DNA from: a virus
Lineage: Duplodnaviria > Heunggongvirae > Uroviricota > Caudoviricetes
DNA length: 29,375 nucleotides
Virus record (IMG/VR): IMGVR_UViG_2563366852_000005
Direction: 5' to 3' (one strand)
Position numbers and translations under genes: made by a program. Below are positions 1-26,142 of the stretch, one piece after another (the first letter of the stretch is position 1; each line of letters begins with the position of its first letter). The notes under the pieces are model-generated. The model worked only from the letters and a program-made list of their open reading frames with translations, made no database searches and was not told the DNA's origin.

Positions 1-408
1 ATGGCAACTCTTAAATCAATAATGGCAATAACCACCTTAATAATTTCACTCAATGCATACGCAAACACGAATGACATTAAAACTCTTCAAAAACAACTGA
101 AACCATGGCAACCACTGGAAATCACAACAAAAGATAGCTCTCTTACCGTTGTTCTCCCTGGTAAAAAAATCACATCTGAAGCCTATAATCATTTAATTAT
201 GTCCGGTGTATGCACCCCACTTTGGACACATGACGCTCCTTCTTCATTTTTAAAAAATGTAAGTGAAATCAATATAGTTAACCAATATAAGTCTATTGGA
301 TATACCTTTGAAGACCCATTGACCACATGCAATGAAATCGCTCCGTTAATGGAAAAACCTGCACAAACAGTGGTGTTATCCAAAACTCATACCTACACAG
401 GTAAGTAA
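1..408 (+). CDS. Hypothetical secreted protein; N-terminal signal-peptide-like segment (MATLKSIMAITTLIISLNAYA), AT-rich; lies outside the ogr end of the prophage
   Basis: ORF track; positively charged n-region, hydrophobic core, AYA-like cleavage site; low GC compared with phage genes. Start at window base 1, so the true start could lie upstream. Confidence 0.45.
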   Translation: MATLKSIMAITTLIISLNAYANTNDIKTLQKQLKPWQPLEITTKDSSLTVVLPGKKITSEAYNHLIMSGVCTPLWTHDAPSSFLKNVSEINIVNQYKSIGYTFEDPLTTCNEIAPLMEKPAQTVVLSKTHTYTGK

Positions 409-414
409 ATAGCT

Positions 415-455
415 CAAATAAGATAAAGCCCCTCGACTGAGGGGCTTTCTGTTTG
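415..455. terminator. Bidirectional intrinsic terminator hairpin (stem AGCCCCTC / GAGGGGCT, loop GACT) with T-rich tracts on both strands; between the flanking ORF and ogr
   Basis: Perfect 8-bp GC-rich inverted repeat at 427..446 followed by TTCTGTTTG on plus and TTATCTTATTT on minus strand. Confidence 0.7.
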
Positions 456-458
456 TAA

Positions 459-677
459 TTACATCCACATAATTTGCTGCCCTGACGGCAACGGGTGCGG
501 TCTTACGGCGTGGACTTCTCCCGGCTTCACGATGTATCGCTGTACCGACTCATAAGTGATGAACGTGGCGCTGCAATTCACGTTCTGACACTGGTGATAA
601 CGCTCTTTTGTCGTGTCAGTGATATAGCGGCTTGTACGCGCATGTGCGGCATGCTGGCATAAAGGACAATGAAACAT
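459..677 (-). CDS. ogr: Ogr late-gene transcriptional activator (zinc-finger, 72 aa)
   Basis: Translation MFHCPLCQHAAHARTSRYITDTTKERYHQCQ... matches recalled P2 Ogr; CxxC...CxxC zinc finger; GGAAGAGG Shine-Dalgarno upstream of this ATG; longer ORF-track start rejected. Confidence 0.93.
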   Translation of the reverse strand: MFHCPLCQHAAHARTSRYITDTTKERYHQCQNVNCSATFITYESVQRYIVKPGEVHAVRPHPLPSGQQIMWM

Positions 678-758
678 CGCGAGCACCTCTTCCGGTTGTG
701 TTGATGGTGCCATTTTAGTTAATTTACCCTTATAAAACAAACAGATAAATAAAACACA

Positions 759-1922
759 TCACTCATCATCTTCTGTTTCGTACTCCACATCAGAAAGCCT
801 GACCTCAAGCTCTAAGGACGTCGTGAAGCCGCTATTATTCAGAAAATGTGTCACCTTAGTGATTGTCCAGTCCTGCTCGTCTATGACGCGCTTAAAGCCT
901 GACACTTTAACCGGTGTTTCCGTGTAAATATCTGCCCGACCGGTAGCCAGGCTGATGGAGAACTCCGCCACACCCCGTTGCAGTTTATCCCACTTCGCCT
1001 GGGCGGCACGCATGGCCTGTGCTTTCGTGGCATATACCGTGGTCAGGGCAAAAACGTTGTCAGCCTCACCGGCCATGTATTCACCTTCGCGCGCTTCCGG
1101 TACTTTTGGCGCTTTCTTCTGCGTGACTGGTTTCGCTTTCGGGTGCTCCAGTGCGCGCAGGTGTTTCTCTTTCTTTTTGCGTTTCAGTTTTACCTTCTGC
1201 TTTTGCGGCTTCGGGTCTTTGGTGTGTAACCACTTTGCCGTTACGCCGGTATAGGCTCCACGGTCAGCAATCGCAAAATGATGGCGGTCGCCGTCGCTGC
1301 GGGTTATGGTAATCTGCGGGATTTTCTTACCGCTGGCCGTCACCCCCTGCCCCGCCTTAAGAAATAACAGTTTTCCCATTTTTACCGACACCTCACCGCC
1401 GTTGCGTTCAGCAAGGCGGGTCAGGAATTTTGCATCAGACTCCTGCGACTGGTCGATGTGCGGGATTTTAATTCCGGCCAGTGACGGAGCAACACTGGCT
1501 TCCAGCTTGTTACGGGAGGCTATCGCCTCAACAATCGTACCGAGCGTGGTGTCATGCCAGGAGCCTTCCCGGCGGGAATTGAGCGTCCCGCGAAAATCTG
1601 CACTCCGGGCGCGGATGGTGACCACATCCGGCGCGCCCCGGTGTTCTACCTCATCAACGGTAAATTTCCCTTTGCATACCAGGGCAAAACCTTTCCAGCC
1701 GATATACACCGTCAGGACAGCGCCACGAATCGGCAGCTCGACCTGCCCGTCGGCATCGTTCAGTTCAATATCAAGCTGGTCAGCCTCAAAGCCCCGGTTA
1801 TCCGTCAGAGTCATGCTCATCAGACGGTCGCTGATATTGCCGGAAATATCCCTGCTGTCGAGCATCAGCATGTAATCCGGCGTCAGCGTACTGCCTGCAT
1901 CAAATGTCAGCGCATCCAGCAT
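759..1922 (-). CDS. D: Tail protein D (P2 gpD)
   Basis: 387 aa ORF in the conserved P2 position downstream of U; N-terminus MLDALTFDAGSTLTPDYMLMLDSRDISG as in P2 gpD. Confidence 0.9.
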   Translation of the reverse strand: MLDALTFDAGSTLTPDYMLMLDSRDISGNISDRLMSMTLTDNRGFEADQLDIELNDADGQVELPIRGAVLTVYIGWKGFALVCKGKFTVDEVEHRGAPDVVTIRARSADFRGTLNSRREGSWHDTTLGTIVEAIASRNKLEASVAPSLAGIKIPHIDQSQESDAKFLTRLAERNGGEVSVKMGKLLFLKAGQGVTASGKKIPQITITRSDGDRHHFAIADRGAYTGVTAKWLHTKDPKPQKQKVKLKRKKKEKHLRALEHPKAKPVTQKKAPKVPEAREGEYMAGEADNVFALTTVYATKAQAMRAAQAKWDKLQRGVAEFSISLATGRADIYTETPVKVSGFKRVIDEQDWTITKVTHFLNNSGFTTSLELEVRLSDVEYETEDDE

Positions 1923-2401
1923 TATCCCGCCCCCGTCATACCTGTGAATCTGGTCGCCATACTGCCAGCCTTACCGATGAGCGACTCCGCCTGTTTACCG
2001 ATATCGCCATAAAGCGCGGCCAGTGATTCATCAACGCGGGTGAGCGACAGCGTAAAATCAATTTTTCGGGGTGTGCCGTCTGCAAAGAAAATACTCCCTG
2101 TTTCACTCACCTTGCTAATGACATACATGCCGTAAATCATGCCAGTGCCATCCAGCAACGGCCACGCCCGGCCTTCATCTGCCATCAGCCTGAGCGTGGT
2201 CATCGTCAGCTTTCCGCCGGTCAGTTCGGGATAAAGCACACCGGCAAGCGTCATGTTTTCCTCACCCACACCGAGAAACTGGTAGGCATCCCGTTTACCG
2301 ATACGGGAATTTGACGGCCAGCGATAATCTGATTCACGCTGCATGGTCTGGTGTGGCAGCGTCTGGCGCATAAAAACAAACATACCTAACGCGAGCATCA
2401 T
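1922..2401 (-). CDS. U: Tail protein U (P2 gpU)
   Basis: 159 aa, synteny T-U-D, stop/start overlap with D. Confidence 0.9.
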   Translation of the reverse strand: MMLALGMFVFMRQTLPHQTMQRESDYRWPSNSRIGKRDAYQFLGVGEENMTLAGVLYPELTGGKLTMTTLRLMADEGRAWPLLDGTGMIYGMYVISKVSETGSIFFADGTPRKIDFTLSLTRVDESLAALYGDIGKQAESLIGKAGSMATRFTGMTGAG

Positions 2402-2415
2402 TTTTCGTCACCTCC

Positions 2416-4863
2416 TTAACCGTCATGCATCATGCTGGCACGGGCGCGCGCACGTTTGTCCCGCTCGTATTTTTCGAGCGCATCCTGTAACTGGCGGTCG
2501 AGCTGTGTCCCCGGCGCAGTACCACCCGTCAGGCTGATGTGATATTCGTTTTTACTCTGGTCTACATAAGAGCGGCCAGCCGGTGCCGTGACCGGCTGAT
2601 AAGCCTGATAACCTGCATAAGAGCTGGTCGCCGGAATATAACCACCGCTGCCATACGTGGCGGCTTGAGTTCTGGCGGCGGTCTGGTCAAGTGTGTCTGA
2701 CTCTTTGTTGATGACACCGAGTTTTTCCAGTACCCAGTCAATACCACTGCGCAGTTTGTTGAACGCATTAAGCGGCAGCATCAGCGCGTCAGCCAGTGCC
2801 TGCCCGAACATGACGCCCGTGTCACGGCAACGGTTCAGGGTGTCCTGGGTGGCTTTGACCGGGGCAATCAGGTTTTTAAACCACTGCCACGCGGCCTGTA
2901 ACTTTTCACCCAGCCAGTCAAACACCGGTTTAAGTGGCGTGAACAGTTCCCCCACCGGCGCAAATGCCGCTTTCAGCCCTTCAACCACACCGCCAAAAAA
3001 TGCGCTGACAGGCTCCCAGTATTTACGGATAAGTAACGCCCCGGCGACAATGGCGGCCACCACGGCCACTACCGGCCAGCTAATCGCCCCGATGGCCGTC
3101 ATAACGGCACTGCCAACCGTCGTGAAGATTGCCCCCATTGCGCCTGCTGCTGCGATAATGGCATTGATGCCGGTGATAACTGGCCAGGCTACGAGGCCAA
3201 TGGCACCGATGACACCAATCAGCGCCAGTGCACCACCGACAATGAGGCCGATGGTTGACGCCAGTGATTTGTTTTTCTGGATCCAGCCGTCGAGTTTTAA
3301 CACATACTTTGTGGCCGTCTGCGTGAGATTACGCAGTGCGCCTTCCTGCTGGTCAAACAGGTCAGTGCCAACAGCCTGATACGCTGACTGAAACGATTTA
3401 AAGTCGCCGCCGAGGTTATCCTGCATAACCTTAACCAGTTCTTCTGTTTTACCGTCAGATTCTTTAATCAACCTGGTCAGATTATCCAGCTTGCCGCTGG
3501 CTGCTGCTGTCATTAATACACTTGCTGATGAGCTGGCCTCTTCGCCGAATATTGTTTTCATGTATTCAGCGCGCTGCCCTGTTCCTAGTTTATTTTTTTC
3601 AAAACTCCGCTGAATTTCTTTCAGAATTGAAAAGACAGGTCGCGTATTACCTTTGCTGTCAGTTGTCTTTACGCCAAGCTCTTTAATAGCGTCATACGCT
3701 TTCCCGGTTGGTGCCTGCAAACGACTCAGTACTGCTCGACTTCCTGTGCCAGCCATAGACCCACTGATATTTGCATCGTGTAATGCACCTAACATTGCTG
3801 CTGTTTCTTCCAGGCTGACACCTGCATCTTTTGCCACTGGCCCGACATAGGTAAGTGAATCACTTAGTCCCTCGAATGTGGCTTGCGATTTATTCATCGT
3901 CATTGAAATAACATCAGCAATATGGGAAGCCTTATCGTCAGCAAGCCCGAATGCCGATTTTGTCCCAATAAGTAAAGTGGCGTTTTCCTCCATCGTTTTC
4001 TTGTTTGCCAGTGACATATTCAAAATGGCCGGTGTTTGTGCCAGGATGCCATTTTTATCCGCTCCTGATTTAGCCACGATGATTTGAGCTGCTGCTGCAT
4101 CATCCGCCGAGGCGGCGGTATTATCGCCGAGCTGGCGCGCCTGCTTGCGGAGCGCGGCCATTTCGGCAGAGTCTTTTGCCACTCCGAGCACGGCCTGTAA
4201 TTCTGAGTTTTTCTGCGCAAACTCATAACCGGGCATCAGCAGCTTAACACCAGCCATCGTTCCCGCCGCCGCAATCCCCACACCGGCAGCGCCCACTGAG
4301 GCCATATTTCCGGCCAGTTCCTTTCCGGCCTGATAACGCTGTTTTACTGCATTAAGTTTTGCCTGTTGCGCACTGACACGCGCCAGCGCGTCACGCTGAC
4401 GGTTAAGCTGTGCGGTGGTTTCACTGATACGGTTTTTCAGTCCCTGCTCATCATGTGCAAGATTGCGGGTATTAATTCCCACAGCGGCCAGTTCCCGCTG
4501 CTGGCGTTTAACGGAATCCGTCAGGCGGTTATATTTCGCCTGTAAGTCCTCCGCCGCACGCTTTGCGGATTCCAGCACTTTCGCCTGAGCACGGGTCGGA
4601 CGTTCAGTGTTTTTAAACTGTGTGGCAAGTGCTTCGGCTTCCTGCCGTGCCTTTTCAAGTGCATGACCAGTCACGGCAAGCTGTGCGCTGGTCTTGCGAA
4701 ATCCCTCAATACGGGATGCGTGACCGTTCAGCTCGCGCAGTGATTTTTGTGTTTCCCGGATATCCCCCGACAGCGACTTGCTCGCTGTGCGGATGGATTT
4801 AAACGGGCGGGATGCCTGGTCAACAGCCCTGAGCAATACCTGTAATTTTACATTGTTACTCAT
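2416..4863 (-). CDS. T: Tail tape measure protein (P2 gpT)
   Basis: 815 aa, coiled-coil N-terminal half, Gly/Ala-rich hydrophobic central segment, position after E/E'. Confidence 0.92.
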   Translation of the reverse strand: MSNNVKLQVLLRAVDQASRPFKSIRTASKSLSGDIRETQKSLRELNGHASRIEGFRKTSAQLAVTGHALEKARQEAEALATQFKNTERPTRAQAKVLESAKRAAEDLQAKYNRLTDSVKRQQRELAAVGINTRNLAHDEQGLKNRISETTAQLNRQRDALARVSAQQAKLNAVKQRYQAGKELAGNMASVGAAGVGIAAAGTMAGVKLLMPGYEFAQKNSELQAVLGVAKDSAEMAALRKQARQLGDNTAASADDAAAAQIIVAKSGADKNGILAQTPAILNMSLANKKTMEENATLLIGTKSAFGLADDKASHIADVISMTMNKSQATFEGLSDSLTYVGPVAKDAGVSLEETAAMLGALHDANISGSMAGTGSRAVLSRLQAPTGKAYDAIKELGVKTTDSKGNTRPVFSILKEIQRSFEKNKLGTGQRAEYMKTIFGEEASSSASVLMTAAASGKLDNLTRLIKESDGKTEELVKVMQDNLGGDFKSFQSAYQAVGTDLFDQQEGALRNLTQTATKYVLKLDGWIQKNKSLASTIGLIVGGALALIGVIGAIGLVAWPVITGINAIIAAAGAMGAIFTTVGSAVMTAIGAISWPVVAVVAAIVAGALLIRKYWEPVSAFFGGVVEGLKAAFAPVGELFTPLKPVFDWLGEKLQAAWQWFKNLIAPVKATQDTLNRCRDTGVMFGQALADALMLPLNAFNKLRSGIDWVLEKLGVINKESDTLDQTAARTQAATYGSGGYIPATSSYAGYQAYQPVTAPAGRSYVDQSKNEYHISLTGGTAPGTQLDRQLQDALEKYERDKRARARASMMHDG

Positions 4864-19080: not shown

Positions 19081-19253
19081 TGTCAGGAGTCCTGAATAGT
19101 GATTAGAGGAGTCACATGTCGACATCAGTTTCCCGACGATGCGCATCCTCCGCCATCAGTCCCGGATGGCTTATCACTGACACAACAGCACCTTAGCGAA
19201 TCGCGGGGCGCGACTCAGTAGCCTTGCCGTGTATTCATCACGGCGAGGTATTC
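19081..19253. promoter_or_regulatory. Divergent late promoter region between O and P; contains palindrome ATGTCGACAT (19116..19125) and dyad GTGA-N9-TCAC (19099..19115)
   Basis: Position between divergent late operons; inverted repeats read directly; exact Ogr-box assignment not possible by eye. Confidence 0.45.
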
Positions 19254-21026
19254 ATGACCATCACCACAGACACCACTCTTTTACACGACCCGCGTCGTCA
19301 GGCGGCGCTGCTGTACTGGCAGGGATTTTCCGTGCCGCAGATTGCCGCCATGTTGCAGATGAAACGCCCGACGGTGCAGAGCTGGAAACAGCGCGACGGC
19401 TGGGACAGCGTTGCCCCCATCAGCCGTGTCGAAATGAGTCTGGAAGCGCGACTGACCCAGCTCATTATCAAACCGCAGAAAACCGGCGGTGACTTCAAGG
19501 AAATTGACCTGCTGGGACGCCAGATTGAACGACTGGCGCGGGTCAACCGCTACAGTCAGACCGGCAACGAGGCAGACCTTAATCCGAACGTCGCTAACCG
19601 CAACAAAGGCGGGCGTCGCAAACCGAAAAAGAATTTTTTCAGTGACGAGGCCATCGAAAAGCTGGAGCAGATTTTCTTTGAGCAGTCTTTCGACTATCAG
19701 TTGCACTGGTATCGCGCCGGGCTTGAGCACCGCATCCGCGATATCCTGAAATCCCGCCAGATTGGCGCAACGTTTTATTTTTCCCGCGAGGCGCTGCTGC
19801 GCGCCCTGAAAACCGGCCATAACCAGATTTTTCTGTCGGCCAGTAAAACGCAGGCGTATGTGTTCCGCGAATACATCATCGCCTTTGCCCGTCTGGTTGA
19901 CGTTGACCTGACCGGTGACCCGATTGTCCTGGGCAATAACGGCGCAAAACTGATTTTTCTCGGCACCAACTCCAACACCGCGCAGAGCCATAACGGCGAC
20001 CTGTACGTCGACGAGATTTTCTGGATCCCGAATTTTCAGGTACTGCGTAAGGTGGCATCAGGTATGGCCTCACAGAGCCACCTGCGCTCGACCTATTTCT
20101 CCACCCCGTCCACGCTGGCGCACGACGCCTACCCGTTCTGGTCGGGTGAACTGTTCAACCGGGGACGCGCCAGCGCCGCCGAACGCGTGGAAATCGACGT
20201 CAGTCATAACGCCCTTGCCGGAGGTCTTCTCTGTGCGGACGGCCAGTGGCGGCAGATTGTCACCATTGAGGACGCCCTGAAAGGTGGCTGCACGCTGTTC
20301 GACATTGAGCAGCTTAAACGCGAAAACAGCGCCGACGATTTTAAAAACCTGTTCATGTGTGAATTTGTTGACGACAAGGCATCGGTGTTCCCGTTCGAGG
20401 AGCTGCAACGCTGCATGGTCGACACGCTGGAAGAATGGGAAGACTATGCACCCTTTGCCGCCAATCCGTTCGGCTCCCGCCCGGTATGGATTGGTTACGA
20501 CCCGTCACACCGTGGCGACAGCGCCGGATGCGTGGTGCTGGCACCGCCGGTGGTGGCCGGTGGCAAATTCAGAATACTTGAGCGTCACCAGTGGAAAGGC
20601 ATGGACTTTGCCACCCAGGCTGAATCCATCCGCAAACTCACCGAAAAATACAACGTCGAATACATCGGAATTGATGCCACCGGCCTCGGTGTCGGCGTGT
20701 TCCAGCTCGTGCGCTCGTTCTATCCCGCCGCGCGCGATATCCGCTACACACCGGAAATGAAAACCGCAATGGTGCTCAAGGCAAAAGACGTTATCCGCCG
20801 TGGCTGTCTGGAATATGACGTCAGCGCCACCGACATCACCAGCTCGTTTATGGCTATCCGAAAGACCATGACCAGCAGCGGACGCAGCGCCACCTATGAG
20901 GCCAGTCGCAGCGAGGAAGCCAGCCACGCCGACCTCGCCTGGGCGACCATGCACGCCCTGTTAAATGAGCCACTCACCGCCGGTATCAGCACCCCGCTGA
21001 CATCCACCATTCTGGAGTTTTACTGA
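19254..21026 (+). CDS. P: Terminase large (ATPase) subunit P (590 aa)
   Basis: MTITTDTTLLHDPRRQAALLYWQGFSVPQIAAMLQ...; ORF-track start at 19224 is a TTG upstream extension. Confidence 0.93.
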   Translation: MTITTDTTLLHDPRRQAALLYWQGFSVPQIAAMLQMKRPTVQSWKQRDGWDSVAPISRVEMSLEARLTQLIIKPQKTGGDFKEIDLLGRQIERLARVNRYSQTGNEADLNPNVANRNKGGRRKPKKNFFSDEAIEKLEQIFFEQSFDYQLHWYRAGLEHRIRDILKSRQIGATFYFSREALLRALKTGHNQIFLSASKTQAYVFREYIIAFARLVDVDLTGDPIVLGNNGAKLIFLGTNSNTAQSHNGDLYVDEIFWIPNFQVLRKVASGMASQSHLRSTYFSTPSTLAHDAYPFWSGELFNRGRASAAERVEIDVSHNALAGGLLCADGQWRQIVTIEDALKGGCTLFDIEQLKRENSADDFKNLFMCEFVDDKASVFPFEELQRCMVDTLEEWEDYAPFAANPFGSRPVWIGYDPSHRGDSAGCVVLAPPVVAGGKFRILERHQWKGMDFATQAESIRKLTEKYNVEYIGIDATGLGVGVFQLVRSFYPAARDIRYTPEMKTAMVLKAKDVIRRGCLEYDVSATDITSSFMAIRKTMTSSGRSATYEASRSEEASHADLAWATMHALLNEPLTAGISTPLTSTILEFY

Positions 21027-22060
21027 TGAGCAAGAAAAAAGGGAAAACACCTCGACCTGCGGCAAAAACAATCACCGCCAGCGCCCCGAAAATGGAAGCA
21101 TTCACCTTTGGCGAGCCGGTGCCGGTACTCGACCGCCGTGACATTCTGGATTACGTCGAATGTATCAGTAACGGCAGATGGTATGAGCCGCCGGTCAGCT
21201 TTACCGGTCTGGCAAAAAGCCTGCGTGCTGCCGTGCATCACAGCTCACCGATTTACGTCAAACGTAATATTCTGGCCTCGACATTTATCCCGCATCCGTG
21301 GCTTTCCCAGCAGGATTTCAGCCGCTTTGTGCTGGATTTTCTGGTCTTCGGTAATGCGTTTCTGGAAAAGCGATACAGCACCACCGGTAAGGTCATCAGA
21401 CTGGAAACCTCACCGGCAAAATATACCCGCCGTGGCGTGGAGGAGGATGTTTACTGGTGGGTGCCGTCCTTCAACGAACCGACACCTTTCGCGCCCGGCT
21501 CCGTGTTTCACCTGCTGGAGCCGGATATTAATCAGGAGCTGTACGGCCTGCCGGAATATCTCAGCGCCCTTAACTCTGCCTGGCTGAATGAGTCGGCCAC
21601 ACTGTTCCGCCGCAAGTATTACGAAAACGGCGCACATGCCGGATATATCATGTATATCACCGACGCATTGCAGGATCGCGATTACATTGACTCACTTCGC
21701 GAAAACATGGCCAAGTCGAAAGGACGCAATAACTTTAATAATCTGTTTCTCTATGCCCCACAGGGAAAGCCAGACGGCATCAAAATTATCCCGCTCAGTG
21801 AAGTGGCGACAAAGGACGATTTTTTTAATATCAAAAAATCCAGCGCCGCTGACCTACTGGACGCGCACCGCATCCCCTTTCAGTTGATGGGTGGCAAGCC
21901 GGAGAACGTCGGGTCGCTGGGTGATATTGAGAAAGTGGCAAAGGTCTTTGTCCGCAATGAGCTTATCCCGTTACAGGACAGGATCCGAGAGATAAACGGC
22001 TGGCTCGGTCAGGAGGTCATCCGCTTTAAAAACTACTCACTGGACACTGACAACGGCTGA
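21026..22060 (+). CDS. Q: Portal protein Q (344 aa)
   Basis: MSKKKGKTPRPAAKT...MEAFTFGEPVPVLDRRDILDYVECISNGRWYEPP...; TGATG overlap with P. Confidence 0.94.
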   Translation: MSKKKGKTPRPAAKTITASAPKMEAFTFGEPVPVLDRRDILDYVECISNGRWYEPPVSFTGLAKSLRAAVHHSSPIYVKRNILASTFIPHPWLSQQDFSRFVLDFLVFGNAFLEKRYSTTGKVIRLETSPAKYTRRGVEEDVYWWVPSFNEPTPFAPGSVFHLLEPDINQELYGLPEYLSALNSAWLNESATLFRRKYYENGAHAGYIMYITDALQDRDYIDSLRENMAKSKGRNNFNNLFLYAPQGKPDGIKIIPLSEVATKDDFFNIKKSSAADLLDAHRIPFQLMGGKPENVGSLGDIEKVAKVFVRNELIPLQDRIREINGWLGQEVIRFKNYSLDTDNG

Positions 22061-22065
22061 ACATC

Positions 22066-22087
22066 GCCGCCTGCGGGCGGCTTTTTT
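22066..22087 (+). terminator. Intrinsic terminator after Q (GCCGCC-tgcg-GGCGGC then TTTTTT)
   Basis: Perfect 6-bp GC stem, 4-nt loop and six T immediately after the Q stop. Confidence 0.85.
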
Positions 22088-22229
22088 ACACCCCGTCATC
22101 ACGCCCTCACACGCTCACCACAGCACAAAACAGCCCGCAGACACAGCAACGCCCCAGCGCACAATCTAAACGCCATCACGACGCGCTCAGACACTGAAAA
22201 AATAAAATCAGCACCACCGCCAGCGCGCA

Positions 22230-22248
22230 GTGCTTTCCCCGCCTCGCC
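22230..22248. other. cos: cos site: 19-nt cohesive-end sequence GTGCTTTCCCCGCCTCGCC (reverse complement of the P2 cos GGCGAGGCGGGGAAAGCAC)
   Basis: Exact match to the P2 cohesive-end sequence as recalled from memory; located between Q and the old-side cargo as in P2. Confidence 0.75.
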
Positions 22249-22376
22249 TGCCCGCTTTATGGGTCGATTTTAATGCAAGTGCACGAACACACTGGAGACG
22301 CACCAGTACTGGCGGTGGTCACGTAGATCCGCCCCTTAAAAGCCATGCAGAATAATGCAACTATTGCGGGCGTCGG

Positions 22377-22796
22377 CTAATCATCTTCTAAAGGTGGAAT
22401 TTTGATGCCACTAATTAGCAGTACTTTCCGGTATGCCTCAAAAATAATGTTGTGTGTTTTTTGTAAATCATCGAGCATTTTTTGCCGTCCTGCTGGGGTA
22501 TCTTTGGCGAAATTATGAGCGCGAAAAAAATCATGTGCCAAGTAGTTTCGAGCTGATAGAGCCAGTTCTACATGTTGTAGCGTTTCATCATCTGCCACCC
22601 CTTTTTTACGCAATAAATTGCTTAGTCTGCCTAATGTTAACTTATCAAATTTTAAGAATTTTTCTTTTAATGTTGGAATGTCTTCGCCTTGCTTCATTTC
22701 ATGTTCGATAAGGACATTAATCAGTTCAACTTCCAACAATTGTGCAGCTTCTGAGGTGTAACCGAACTTCCAAAAGACTTCATCAAGCGTTGCCAT
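22377..22796 (-). CDS. Hypothetical small alpha-helical protein with an HEPN-type R-N-x3-H motif (RNYLAH); candidate RNase toxin or abortive-infection effector in the tin/old cargo slot
   Basis: 139 aa from ATG at 22796 (ORF-track start 22805 is GTG); GAGTGG Shine-Dalgarno-like element upstream; about 35% GC versus about 52% for the phage backbone; motif read from translation. Confidence 0.6.
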   Translation of the reverse strand: MATLDEVFWKFGYTSEAAQLLEVELINVLIEHEMKQGEDIPTLKEKFLKFDKLTLGRLSNLLRKKGVADDETLQHVELALSARNYLAHDFFRAHNFAKDTPAGRQKMLDDLQKTHNIIFEAYRKVLLISGIKIPPLEDD

Positions 22797-22933
22797 GTGT
22801 TCCACTCAAGATAAATGCAGGTTATGAAAAAGAAGAATGATGATGGAAATTCCAGATGAAGTCTAACGCCTCGCTCCGCTCGTTGTTCAACCCCGCCAGC
22901 CCTGAAAACAAGTTTCACGACTGGCGGCGTTCT
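22797..22933 (-). promoter_or_regulatory. Putative own promoter/leader region for the AT-rich HEPN-like gene
   Basis: 137-nt non-coding gap with a GC-rich to AT-rich transition upstream of the ORF; no clear consensus -35/-10 assignable by eye. Confidence 0.3.
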
Positions 22934-23140
22934 CTATCGTCTGCGTGGTGGTGGCGTAACTCTTGATTGACCGATATGGTTAAACCGCCCGTAATTATCC
23001 CGGACTATTTCGGCACACACGACCAGCTCATCGGGCGTCAGATTTTCGTTGACCATAATCCGCTGTAAACGCTGAACAATAGCCATCAGCTTGATATTTT
23101 TAGTTTTATGGTGCGGTATCTCGCCTGGTATTCTGTGCAT
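22934..23140 (-). CDS. Small hypothetical protein (68 aa), translationally coupled to the upstream ASCH-like gene (TAATG overlap)
   Basis: ATG at 23138..23140 overlaps the TAA of the upstream gene; helical-looking sequence MHRIPGEIPHHKTKNIKLMAIVQRLQRIMVNENLTPDELVV... Confidence 0.4.
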   Translation of the reverse strand: MHRIPGEIPHHKTKNIKLMAIVQRLQRIMVNENLTPDELVVCAEIVRDNYGRFNHIGQSRVTPPPRRR

Positions 23141-23592
23141 TATCCAAGCCACCCGTTTTGCTGTGCACGCTCCATCTGTTCATCTGAATAGTTCCATGCT
23201 CCATCCGTGGCAACCATTGCCCCGCCAGACATCCCCGTCTCTGGTTCATACATAACAGCAAGGCCGAGCTGATGCATAATTTCATGATTAATTCTGAATA
23301 CCAGACCACGCTCACTAAGTTCTTTCCAGTTCACAATCTCATATGCGCCTGTATTAAGCCGCTCAATACTTAGCAAGACATAATCTTCCAGCCAGTCTGA
23401 CAGGTCAGTAACATCTGTTATCCGGGCTTCAACCTTTCGCCCCGTATACACACCCTGCACCCATTCATGCAAAATCAACGTGTCCCCGCGCTCATAATTA
23501 CGGTCATTTTTCCGAAACTCTGCACGTTTATGTCCTTCCAGCACAAGGTCGAAATATTTTGCGTGCAGCTTTACCTCGTGAATTTTTGCCAT
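23140..23592 (-). CDS. ASCH/PUA-like (DUF3850-like) domain protein with a C-terminal HEIMH (HExxH) motif, translationally coupled to A
   Basis: 150 aa from ATG at 23590..23592 overlapping the A stop (TAATG); N-terminal pattern KIHEVKLHAKYFDLVLEGHKRAEFRKNDRNYERGDTLILHEW...YTGR resembles ASCH-like phage proteins; C-terminal INHEIMHQLG. Confidence 0.6.
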   Translation of the reverse strand: MAKIHEVKLHAKYFDLVLEGHKRAEFRKNDRNYERGDTLILHEWVQGVYTGRKVEARITDVTDLSDWLEDYVLLSIERLNTGAYEIVNWKELSERGLVFRINHEIMHQLGLAVMYEPETGMSGGAMVATDGAWNYSDEQMERAQQNGWLG

Positions 23593-25877
23593 TATGTCCA
23601 CTCCATTACTGTTGAGAATCCCGGCCACTCATCAGCGACCGGATACGTGAATTTTTTCCCGTCGTAATTTACGGTTGCCCCACGCGCCAGCGCCTCAAGC
23701 TCCCATCGCTGAGGCCTGATACCGTTCTGAGCAAGGTCAACACGGATACGGGTAATTTGCATTCTTTCCGACCGGGTCAGTCTGGCCGATGGTGCAATTT
23801 CATGCGGTTTTAACGGGCTTCCGTTTCTTTGCTGACGATTTGGTGTTCTCATGTCGTGTTTTAATGCGCCCCTGAGCGCCCTCACGACCTCCTGGTCATT
23901 CCATTCGATAACACCGTCATCAACCAGATTAAGCACTGCTGCGGCGTGTTCAGAAGGTGTGGGAGCCGGTAACGAAGCATCACCGCCGGTGAACTTTCCA
24001 CAGTTATTGACAGGACTCCGAGGCGCGGCGATGCCGCTTTTTAAAGTCAAAGGCTCAACGACCGGAACTTTCGGCACAATGCGCCAGTCCGTCGTTCTGG
24101 TGATATGAATATGTCGCGCGCCGAGATGCGGCGCGTAAATGCCGACCACTCTCTCGACTTCTTCTTCGTACTCGTTAACGTCTTCCGACGGGCTACGGGC
24201 AACCCTGACAGTCTGACAATCGCGCGGGACATTTGCCCCACCCTGCGCGCTGATATACAACGCAAAATCACCACTGTCTGCGGCGGCGCGTGCAGCCTCG
24301 ACGCGCTCGTCAAACTCATCAGCAATGCTGACGCCGCGAGGCAATTTGCGTAGTTCACGGTAAGCCCCCATTGTCGGCAGACCAACCGTTTTAAATTGCG
24401 GAATGCGCCACGTTGACGCCCATGCGGTAACAGCCGCAGCAGTGTCTTTCAGCGGCCTGCCGGTATCGTTATCGAGCTGACCATCCAGTGCATAGCCGTC
24501 GATGTTTTTTGAGATGTATTTCGCGATATACCCCGCAGCACCGCCCCGGTTAAGGTGTTTTGCCTGAAAACGGTTTCGCGCGGCTCCTCTTTCGTCGCCA
24601 TCCTCTTTGAGCGCGTAGCGACGCATGATTTCGATAATCTGGTTACGCTGGCGTGGATTACAAAAAAGCATCATATGCCAGTGCGGCGTTCCGTCGTGGT
24701 GTGGTTCAACAACACGCAAACCGTAGGCCTGTAAATCATTATCCTTGAATGCCGTGCGCATCAGGCTCCAGATACGGCAGAGATAACGCTGCGCATCCTT
24801 TGGATTAAATGCCTCATCGTTCCAGCCGTGATTTAGCTGGACGGTTTTACTTTCGCCTTTTCTGACCTGACGTGTCGGGTGATACTTTGACGGCGCGGTA
24901 AGCGTGATAAACATCCCCACATCACCCTCTGCGGCGGCGTAACGCTCAATACCGGCGATGGTGTTCATCAGCTCCATCCGGCGAATTTCTGGATTTGAAA
25001 TACTGCCCATCACCTTACTGATAAGGTCGATGCGCTCGCCGGTTTCCTTGTTTTCAAGGTCACACGATTTAAGAAATTCCAGATTTGCCTGGCGGCGTGC
25101 ACGTACATCACGAATGGCATGTTTACTGGCATAAGGAGAACGGTCTTTATTGACCTCCCCGACAGCAATCAGTAACGCCTCATGCCAGCGCATGCGCTGG
25201 CCTTTGAGCTGATGAGTCCACCACTCATCGTTAAACAGACGGGCAATGGCAGAATACGCCTGCCTCGTGGTCATCTGTCCTTTACGGTATTTTTTCCAGT
25301 AGAGCGGGGAAATATTGAAAGCACGTGCAGCGCCAGCAACATGACCATACAGGTGAGCCTGCGCCTCATCCGTAAACAGCGATTCTTTTTCGCCATGCGC
25401 ATCCACCCAGGCATCGCTGAGTTCCTCATACATCATGAAAAGCTGCGATGAGATACGGGCGGCAAACTTTTTCAGCTCTTTGTCATTCATTCCAGGCAGG
25501 CGCGCATAGTGGTCACGCTCTGCCAGAAACAGCAACGACGCGTCGGTGTTCATTTCATGGCGCTGATTCACACGCTCAATGCGCGGCCATAAACGACGCT
25601 GAAAAGTGGATGTGAGGAAATAAAACCCGTGCACCGGGCTTTTATTGCGCCGGATGTAGTCATAGCGTGAAGTAAACAGCGAGCGCAAAAAGTAAGGCAG
25701 GCGGTTAATCGTGGATAAAACACCTTGCACCTGACGCATCTCGTCACGTGTAAGGGGTCTTTCGCGCCCGACAGCCTCGCGTGGCGCGTTCCATGCATAA
25801 GCACCGGTAAACGCCTTACCGGTGCCTGCGGCAAATGCTGACGGAGGGACAAAACGCCCGGAGGCTTTAACGGCCAT
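23592..25877 (-). CDS. A: Replication initiation protein A (rolling-circle nickase, 761 aa)
   Basis: MAVKASGRFVPPSAFAAGTGK...; start chosen to match P2 gpA length; ORF-track start at 25919 is an upstream extension. Confidence 0.93.
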   Translation of the reverse strand: MAVKASGRFVPPSAFAAGTGKAFTGAYAWNAPREAVGRERPLTRDEMRQVQGVLSTINRLPYFLRSLFTSRYDYIRRNKSPVHGFYFLTSTFQRRLWPRIERVNQRHEMNTDASLLFLAERDHYARLPGMNDKELKKFAARISSQLFMMYEELSDAWVDAHGEKESLFTDEAQAHLYGHVAGAARAFNISPLYWKKYRKGQMTTRQAYSAIARLFNDEWWTHQLKGQRMRWHEALLIAVGEVNKDRSPYASKHAIRDVRARRQANLEFLKSCDLENKETGERIDLISKVMGSISNPEIRRMELMNTIAGIERYAAAEGDVGMFITLTAPSKYHPTRQVRKGESKTVQLNHGWNDEAFNPKDAQRYLCRIWSLMRTAFKDNDLQAYGLRVVEPHHDGTPHWHMMLFCNPRQRNQIIEIMRRYALKEDGDERGAARNRFQAKHLNRGGAAGYIAKYISKNIDGYALDGQLDNDTGRPLKDTAAAVTAWASTWRIPQFKTVGLPTMGAYRELRKLPRGVSIADEFDERVEAARAAADSGDFALYISAQGGANVPRDCQTVRVARSPSEDVNEYEEEVERVVGIYAPHLGARHIHITRTTDWRIVPKVPVVEPLTLKSGIAAPRSPVNNCGKFTGGDASLPAPTPSEHAAAVLNLVDDGVIEWNDQEVVRALRGALKHDMRTPNRQQRNGSPLKPHEIAPSARLTRSERMQITRIRVDLAQNGIRPQRWELEALARGATVNYDGKKFTYPVADEWPGFSTVMEWT

Positions 25878-26142
25878 ATGAGCCAAAAGCCTCTGAGCAA
25901 CGCTTGCTGAGTTGCTCAACCTGCGCGTTTAAATCAGCAAAAGACTTTGCGCTTCCGGTCAGAATATCGTGATGCATCAGGCCGGAAACGAGCTGGCTTA
26001 ATTTCGGGTAATAACCAACCACCGCCAGCCATTCCTGACCGGCGTTTTTACCGCTTTCCGCTCTCTTTTTCTCGTGGAGAATAAACTGAAAGCTGTCACT
26101 GGTAACGACATAACGTTCGCCAATTTCAATACGAATACTCAT
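25867..26142 (-). CDS. P2 orf83-like hypothetical early protein
   Basis: 91 aa immediately upstream of A, overlapping its start; conserved early-operon position. Confidence 0.75.
   Translation of the reverse strand: MSIRIEIGERYVVTSDSFQFILHEKKRAESGKNAGQEWLAVVGYYPKLSQLVSGLMHHDILTGSAKSFADLNAQVEQLSKRCSEAFGSYGR

Follow-up and report, generated by a model that had tools for sequence, protein, structure and literature searches.

What do the genes between the replication gene A and the cos site of a P2-like prophage do, and do they work together? The question is raised by a 29,375-nt stretch of Caudoviricetes DNA (IMG/VR record IMGVR_UViG_2563366852_000005), here called the window, in which a P2-like prophage lies in reverse orientation relative to the P2 map. 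A first-pass annotation, made from the sequence alone, had recognised this interval as the P2 A-to-cos (tin/old) hotspot and had described in it a three-gene cargo, encoding an ASCH/PUA-like protein, a 68-aa protein (orf68) and a 139-aa protein with a HEPN-type motif, that might form an RNA-targeting defence module. The interval is indeed this hotspot, and the three open reading frames (ORFs) are real and all on the minus strand, with small corrections to their coordinates (Table 1). We found that the locus consists of two layers, a conserved backbone A-ASCH-orf68 that ends in a non-coding boundary element, and a single cargo gene that encodes the 139-aa protein. In our reading this protein is a HEPN-type ribonuclease (RNase) and its gene a phage-excluding moron gene, and we put the probability of the whole statement, layers included, at about 0.45.

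Backbone and cargo between gene A and cos

The DNA from 22863 to 23700, which comprises the ASCH gene, orf68 and ~70 nt more, was 92-98% identical by megablast to Wphi, P22H4, P24A7b and several P2-like phages of Yersinia and Escherichia coli, and in Wphi the matching stretch is annotated as gp91, gp92 and A. Downstream of this conserved block, Wphi carries a methylase and two other genes, and the Yersinia phage vB_YpM_50 an unrelated 197-aa protein. A 1640-nt query was partly matched in 1693 of 5426 complete E. coli genomes and matched over its full length in one, strain 06-3462; positions 262-802 of the query were without a match in all of these genomes but one. The variable part is confined to 22316/22322-22862 and holds a single gene, that of the 139-aa protein. 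This gene is AT-rich, as had been noted from the start, with a GC content of 0.38-0.40 compared to 0.50-0.58 in its surroundings.

The distribution of the genes contradicts a module made of ASCH, the small ORF and the HEPN-like gene. A 278-nt probe for orf68 and its flank with the boundary element was found in 567 of the 5426 E. coli genomes, while the 139-aa gene was found in 31, in three sequence types, so that orf68 is ~18 times commoner. Among the 34 phage records with orf68, only PSP3 (two entries) also has the 139-aa gene. The identity across phages with differing downstream genes, together with the genome counts, identifies the ASCH gene (a homologue of P2 orf91) and orf68 as conserved P2-family genes that end the early operon. 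The two are also coupled, as had been proposed for the 68-aa ORF: the stop of A and the ATG of ASCH overlap in TAATG, and the stop of ASCH and the ATG of orf68 overlap in the same way. Two of the three genes thus matched conserved P2-family early genes, both of uncharacterised function. What stands of the three-gene cargo is the variable 139-aa gene, whereas ASCH and orf68 are conserved with differing downstream genes, and the fallback given in the first-pass annotation, two independently acquired halves, is correct. Since orf68 is far commoner than the 139-aa gene and one type of locus (A-HNH-139aa) lacks it, we treat it as flank and not as partner. A split with A-ASCH-orf68 conserved and the 139-aa gene alone as cargo is, in our judgement, highly probable. 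It stops the early genes, ASCH/orf91 and orf68, and the boundary element from being counted as defence candidates and narrows the candidate to one 420-bp gene.

In enterobacteria the 139-aa gene occurs in P2- or 186-like prophages in five arrangements, and in each of them no other gene lies between it and cos. These are A-ASCH-orf68-139aa (the window and E. coli 06-3462), A-tumA-tumB-gp37-139aa (PSP3), A-DinI-243aa-orf68-139aa (Salmonella), A-380aa-168aa-DUF2971-orf68-139aa (E. coli, ~20 complete genomes) and A-HNH-139aa with no orf68 or hairpin (E. coli, ~10 genomes, K_EC180 type). In four of the five an orf68 homologue precedes the 139-aa gene by ~135 nt, also where its identity has fallen to 49%, which keeps a two-gene reading alive. 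Salmonella phage PSP3 holds the sole homologue of the 139-aa protein among sequenced phages, gp38 (66% identity), and its gp37 is 72-76% identical to orf68; the order gp37-element-gp38 is that of the window, with gp38 as the last gene before cos. PSP3 differs in being a 186-like phage (Eganvirus) in which the pair follows tumA/tumB and no ASCH gene is adjacent, and there the pair probably belongs to the SOS operon.

Searches of Pfam, NCBIfam and PADLOC recognised only the ASCH protein among the three, and none of them is Old, Tin, a retron or any other system with a PADLOC model, the PD-T4 and PD-lambda systems included. The ASCH assignment was well founded, with DUF3850 at 64.1 bits (cut-off 22.9), ASCH at 42.5 (21.2) and DUF7415 at 53.8 (27); against PADLOC-DB 2.0 this protein gave no more than E 0.034 to PDC-M11B, and orf68 matched none of the models there. 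The exact ASCH sequence occurs on 299 contigs under the name DUF3850, and the exact proteins of the window are present in public genomes of Salmonella enterica and Enterobacteriaceae, labelled 'DUF3850 domain-containing' or 'hypothetical'. The position of ASCH directly 3' of gene A is kept across P2-like phages whatever the downstream cargo. The 186-like contigs also carry an ASCH-like gene (~42% identity) beside A, there on its upstream side. P2 orf91 and Wphi gp91 share with the window gene the place right after A and the DUF3850 domain, and Wphi gp91 is ~86% identical to the window protein (tblastn). P2 shares only the 5' part of the gene (97% DNA identity), its orf91 having just the DUF3850 part in common, whereas the window encodes a long 150-aa form with a C-terminal DUF7415; the hotspot in P2 also begins earlier. 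The gpA of the window is 96-98% identical to that of Wphi and of E. coli P2-like prophages, and the true start of gene A is probably downstream of the listed TTG.

Table 1. Features of the locus and their positions in the window
Feature	Position	Strand	Remarks
Terminase gene P	19224-21026	+	
Portal gene Q	21026-22060	+	Context; right anchor of the hotspot
P2-type cos cohesive-end 19-mer GGCGAGGCGGGGAAAGCAC	22230-22248	-	
Variable segment	22316-22862		AT-rich cassette of ~545 bp with one gene; flank homology resumes at 22315; GC 0.38-0.43
139-aa gene	22377-22796	-	ATG start ('MATLD'), as in all homologues; PSP3 gp38 homologue; phrog_12893 (function unassigned; 6e-83); the actual cargo
Conserved non-coding boundary element	22863-22933	-	Alignment and covariation
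orf68	22934-23140	-	68 aa; phrog_11386 (1.8e-37); PSP3 gp37 homologue; conserved flank
ASCH/PUA-like protein gene	23140-23592	-	150 aa, ATG start; DUF3850 and DUF7415; phrog_1812 (4e-82); P2 orf91/Wphi gp91 homologue; backbone
Replication endonuclease gene A	23592-25919	-	Context; the left anchor in published definitions of the hotspot

The boundary element

The element of ~70 nt lies directly after the orf68 stop and was kept in all seven loci first compared. It is formed by a hairpin of 17-18 bp (arms 22889-22907 and 22913-22931, minus strand) and an invariant tail, GGGGTTGAACAACGAG-N3-4-GCGAGGCGTTAG (22863-22894), and homology between phages stops exactly after GCGTTAG, at its end. When IMG/VR was searched with the 16-nt core of the element, at least 120 contigs were found, and 80 of these were examined as loci. 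Wherever gpA and gpQ were detectable the core lay between them (neither was seen in 9/80), and the gpA proteins of element-bearing loci were between 34% and 98% identical to that of the window. The GCGTTAG tail was missing in 8 of the 80 loci. Directly upstream of the element, orf68 was found in 36 of the 78 contigs with enough upstream flank, and the HEPN-like gene was downstream of it in 2/80. Between the element and the Q stop lay 350 to 3722 nt. In ~10 contigs only ~140 nt separated the element from conserved cos-proximal sequence; this stretch of the cargo-less relatives holds an intrinsic terminator like t95b of phage 186 and P4-like cos-adjacent sequence, and the window has its cassette in its place. 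The element is the precise operational left edge of the exchangeable slot.

Compensatory double changes were seen in 10 of the 18 hairpin pairs (24 predicted pairs overall) among 34 unique copies, and the frequent G-U pairs on the sense strand favour an RNA structure. The tail GCGAGGCGTTAG was invariant in the 34 copies, whereas that of the 16-mer was imposed by the search itself. There was no matching family in Rfam. In phage 186 (U32222) the element is present but unannotated at 30344-30415, between the stop of orf97 and the annotated terminator t95b, which follows ~20 nt downstream. An intrinsic terminator was considered as the identity of the element and rejected, as the hairpin is followed by GGGGUUGAACAACGAG with no U-tract and a terminator scan was empty there. 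The element might control expression of the cassette that follows it or guide the exchange of cassettes, and if functional it bears on the open question of how hotspot cassettes swap (PMC13586616).

Two E. coli loci deviate from the common layout. In strain VTB96933v (L054, 5001-5087) the element is preceded by a 30-residue remnant of orf68, 57% identical, and followed by a retron-like reverse transcriptase gene on the opposite strand; this shows that the element also occurs where orf68 is not intact. In strain K_EC180 (NZ_CP062203; L053, 4400-4540) the 139-aa gene follows a gene with an HNH motif, and both orf68 and the hairpin are missing. Upstream of the 139-aa gene, this strain has nevertheless kept a PSP3-type leader and the final ~11 nt of the element (GAGGCGTTAGA), so the left junction of the cassette is preserved even with the rest of the element gone.

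The 139-aa protein and the HEPN ribonucleases

A word-indexed search placed relatives of the 139-aa protein in 19 enterobacterial clusters, and an exhaustive profile search extended the family to 1495 clusters at 50% identity (E ≤1e-3), or 294 at E ≤1e-10. Nearly all members are stand-alone proteins of 140-190 aa, from loci of Gallionella, Variovorax, Thalassospira, Vibrio, Acidobacteria, Gemmatimonadota, Planctomycetota, Verrucomicrobiota, Nitrospirota and others. Structure prediction, which the first-pass annotation had proposed as a check, gave a confident model: with a 20-sequence alignment, AlphaFold2 returned an all-helical fold of five helices (predicted local distance difference test, pLDDT, 92.7; predicted template modelling score, pTM, 0.85). 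In an alignment of 93 diverse homologues drawn from the 1495 clusters, G12 and E22 were invariant, and Q19, T54, G56, A79, R83, N84, L86, H88, F90, G103, M107 and L111 were conserved in at least 90%. The HEPN-type motif pointed out earlier, R-N-Y-L-A-H in the window and R83-N84-x-L86-x-H88 in general form, is therefore nearly invariant.

According to Anantharaman et al., HEPN domains are marked by an Rx4-6H motif with a polar residue (N/D/H) after the R, at the end of the penultimate helix, and by an upstream acidic residue (PMC3710099). The window sequence R-N-Y-L-A-H has this form, and its R, N, L and H are conserved in at least 90% of the 93 homologues; in the model, R-N-x3-H falls close to where the penultimate long helix ends, and a Glu upstream of it is conserved. 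Profile comparisons pointed in the same direction. The top Pfam match of the family consensus was HEPN_Apea (E 0.0015, residues 34-95, 62 residues) and the third was DUF4145 (E 0.014). A scan of the 93 members against 24,736 models gave 21 matches (E ≤0.1) in seven HEPN-clan families, namely DUF4145 with eight, HEPN_Apea with four, LA2681 and RiboL-PSP with three each, and Cthe2314, MAE_28990 and pEK499_p136 with one each, a concentration far above chance. Two HepT-like matches were excluded from the 21, and the one of these that was examined (P0073) was a fused C-terminal domain. Some members also weakly matched HEPN-bearing models of PADLOC (E 1e-3 or weaker), namely Cas13-ApeA, Cas13a/b and Csx1/Csm6. 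In one 331-aa member, P0104, the whole domain is duplicated in tandem and the RNxLAHH motif is intact in each copy, which fits an active site formed between two domains.

HepT-like domains were a candidate that did not hold. The 279-aa member P0073 is fused to a C-terminal HepT-like (DUF86) HEPN domain that lacks a motif of its own, and the HepT-like Pfam match (E 1.5e-5) proved to be this separate domain and not that of the family. A 98.5% hhalign match to HepT-like was an artefact of the same fusion in the alignment and became negative after trimming.

Compared to the HEPN RNases of defence and toxin systems (ApeA, DUF4145-type proteins, AbiD/F, HepT and Cas13/Csm6), the 139-aa protein is likewise small and, in the predicted model, all-alpha, with R-N-x3-H and an upstream acidic residue, and it shows weak profile similarity to HEPN_Apea/DUF4145 over 40-60 residues; its tandem relative implies a dimer. 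It differs in having no MNT antitoxin, ATPase, restriction endonuclease, sensor domain or conserved partner. On balance we consider it somewhat more probable than otherwise that the protein is a HEPN-type RNase, and if it is HEPN, its 139 aa would place it with the smallest of the stand-alone HEPN proteins.

Function in the hotspot and competing explanations

In enterobacteria, P2-like prophages form a major store of genes directed against phages, and one in five of these prophages has nothing but unknown genes at the hotspot. The slot itself is documented as a defence hotspot (PMC9122126, PMC9519451). Rousset et al. defined it as everything between gpA and gpQ (PMC9122126), and by this definition the arrangement of the window appears there only as an entry of Table S5A, 'DUF3850/ASCH + hypothetical + hypothetical'. 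In the same study, three of eight further untested P2-hotspot loci protected against phage. The 'Putative HEPN' P2 locus that they tested (pFR103) was compared with the cargo gene and set aside, as it encodes a different, much larger protein. In phage 186, orf97 (243 aa) lies just before the element (L175, 2105-2836) and is annotated in the record as blocking 186 infection from a plasmid. Both tin/old and orf97 share with the 139-aa gene the A-to-cos slot, the orientation and a moron-like character, but they have a phage exclusion phenotype and no sequence similarity to the 139-aa protein. Position in the slot would thus suggest a defence role for the 139-aa gene, a tentative proposal that falls short of even odds. 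The gene is a rare single-gene cargo of an unnamed, probably HEPN-related family, and it does not stand out from the hundreds of other unknown families that the P2 hotspot holds. In the Salmonella prophages with orf68 and the 139-aa gene (L049-L052, 3749-4480), an ORF of equal length is found at the position of orf97.

In the explanation that we prefer, A-ASCH-orf68 forms the end of the conserved early (replication) operon of P2, with its genes coupled in translation, and closes with the structured element, and the slot from the element to cos holds a single, horizontally acquired, AT-rich gene. The 139-aa helical-bundle protein is predicted to be a divergent, metal-independent HEPN-type RNase that acts as a homodimer, with an active site of R83, N84 and H88 at the dimer interface. 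As a prophage moron gene, comparable to tin/old in P2 and orf97 in 186, it would exclude other phages or abort their infection by RNA cleavage, and it would need neither ASCH nor, strictly, orf68. A stand-alone RNase of this kind may be kept harmless by low expression, by a narrow substrate range or by activation through a phage cue. If it is an active HEPN RNase without a partner, few single-gene exclusion systems would be smaller, and a large family that has no name would gain a function. Two more ambitious proposals are doubtful. In one, the protein would found a new and very widespread family of minimal HEPN-type RNases that act without a partner (~1500 clusters at 50% identity), of which one branch was recruited by P2/186-like prophages for single-gene exclusion. 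In the other, the hairpin with its tail GGGGUUGAACAACGAG-N3-4-GCGAGGCGUUAG, kept between phages with A proteins of only ~35% identity, would be an undescribed functional RNA or DNA element that defines the left docking edge of the P2/186 defence hotspot.

Several results weigh against our explanation. The 139-aa protein had no match in Pfam, NCBIfam or PADLOC 2.0. The family consensus reached no HEPN model at its curated threshold (HEPN_Apea 19.4 bits vs 24.4; DUF4145 15.9 vs 23.1), and the invariant Glu lies in helix 1 and not in helix 2 as in canonical HEPN. An hhalign comparison with one HepT-like subfamily, built from the fused domain of P0073, was negative (E 0.17), a PDB profile search with the family was empty, and in a Foldseek comparison no structure of PDB or BFVD scored below E 0.2. 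There was no enrichment of defence islands around the distant family members; housekeeping genes prevail next to them, and a McrBC, methylase or Ymh protein appears only now and then. A consensus scan found no promoter or terminator specific to the 139-aa gene. Machine-learning predictions put only 15-32% of unknown P2 proteins as defensive (PMC13586616).

Among the alternatives, two would give the 139-aa protein a partner. orf68 could be an antitoxin, inhibitor or specificity factor of a 139-aa toxin, with the element between them as a regulatory site. The constant place of orf68 ~135 nt upstream speaks for this, since it is kept in arrangements that include two without an adjacent ASCH gene and one at 49% identity, and since the pair occurs in both Peduovirus-like and Eganvirus-like backbones. 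However, the ~10 genomes of the K_EC180 type carry A-HNH-139aa without orf68 or hairpin, the counts of 567 and 31 E. coli genomes and the 34 phage records with PSP3 alone having both genes separate the two, and orf68 is translationally coupled to ASCH rather than to the 139-aa gene. In 37 distant loci of the family no recurring partner gene was found, as each cluster that recurred proved to be an ORF that overlaps the gene itself, on one strand or the other, and the family is therefore stand-alone. We consider a two-gene module improbable. A HepT-MntA toxin-antitoxin pair was also examined and rejected, with no MNT domain among the 25 neighbour families listed of the 96 matched around these 37 loci; upstream of the enterobacterial gene lies orf68 or HNH, not MNT. 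A type III (ToxIN-like) toxin-antitoxin system was rejected as well, as a search of 22050-23700 showed none of the tandem repeats expected for it. In favour of a three-gene RNA-targeting defence system are the domain types, since ASCH belongs to the PUA-like domains and the HEPN families consist of RNases, and the adjacent, co-oriented and compact arrangement of the genes in the window. Yet the ASCH-orf68 backbone is also accompanied by many other cargos, four further arrangements have the 139-aa gene with no ASCH gene next to it, and the GC discontinuity and the conserved boundary element separate the two parts, so that such a system is very unlikely.

Two further alternatives keep the single gene and change its task. 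As a HEPN-like RNase the protein could serve the phage, by cleaving host or rival RNA in lytic or SOS growth or by counter-defence, or it could have a general role in RNA metabolism or stress. The gene follows the early operon in the same orientation, an intrinsic terminator between the two is lacking, and in 186/PSP3-like phages this operon is the LexA-controlled p95 SOS operon. With no promoter of its own and no terminator after the upstream operon, expression could be early/lytic or SOS-linked rather than lysogenic, and for this reason we retain a phage-serving role as a rival; the housekeeping genes around distant homologues would in turn suit RNA metabolism. The rare and patchy occurrence (31/5426), the AT-richness and the swap-prone slot fit an accessory conflict gene better, and the slot neighbours with known phenotypes, tin, old and 186 orf97, exclude phages; we judge this alternative unlikely. 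It is equally unlikely that the protein is no enzyme but a small helical-bundle adaptor, inhibitor or regulator, for instance in anti-defence or as a modulator of transcription or packaging, with the R, N and H used for binding. R-N-x3-H with a polar residue after the R is a catalytic signature and is kept in at least 90% of members across many phyla, the tandem-domain homologue has kept both motifs, and non-catalytic HEPN families typically lose the motif (PMC3710099).

Some minor features of the cassette and its edges were also recorded. The cargo leader begins with 22 nt (AGACUUCAUCUGGAAUUUCCAU) that show 77% complementarity to the 139-aa gene over its start codon and the first seven codons (22765-22870, minus strand). 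The PSP3-type leaders pair differently, with their Shine-Dalgarno region, and the leader/start-codon hairpins of the 139-aa gene were not more stable than shuffled sequences (z -0.06 to -1.7). The cos 19-mer is bracketed by a perfect 11-bp inverted repeat, ACCACCGCCAG / CTGGCGGTGGT (22213-22223 / 22309-22319), and the arms of the boundary hairpin (22893-22904 / 22920-22932) contain CCGCCAG/CTGGCGG, a sequence much like that of this repeat. The cassette is flanked on both sides by imperfect direct repeats, with 11 of 13 nt matching between the cos-side repeat and the hairpin arm, which could be due to chance, a common binding motif or a relic of duplication.

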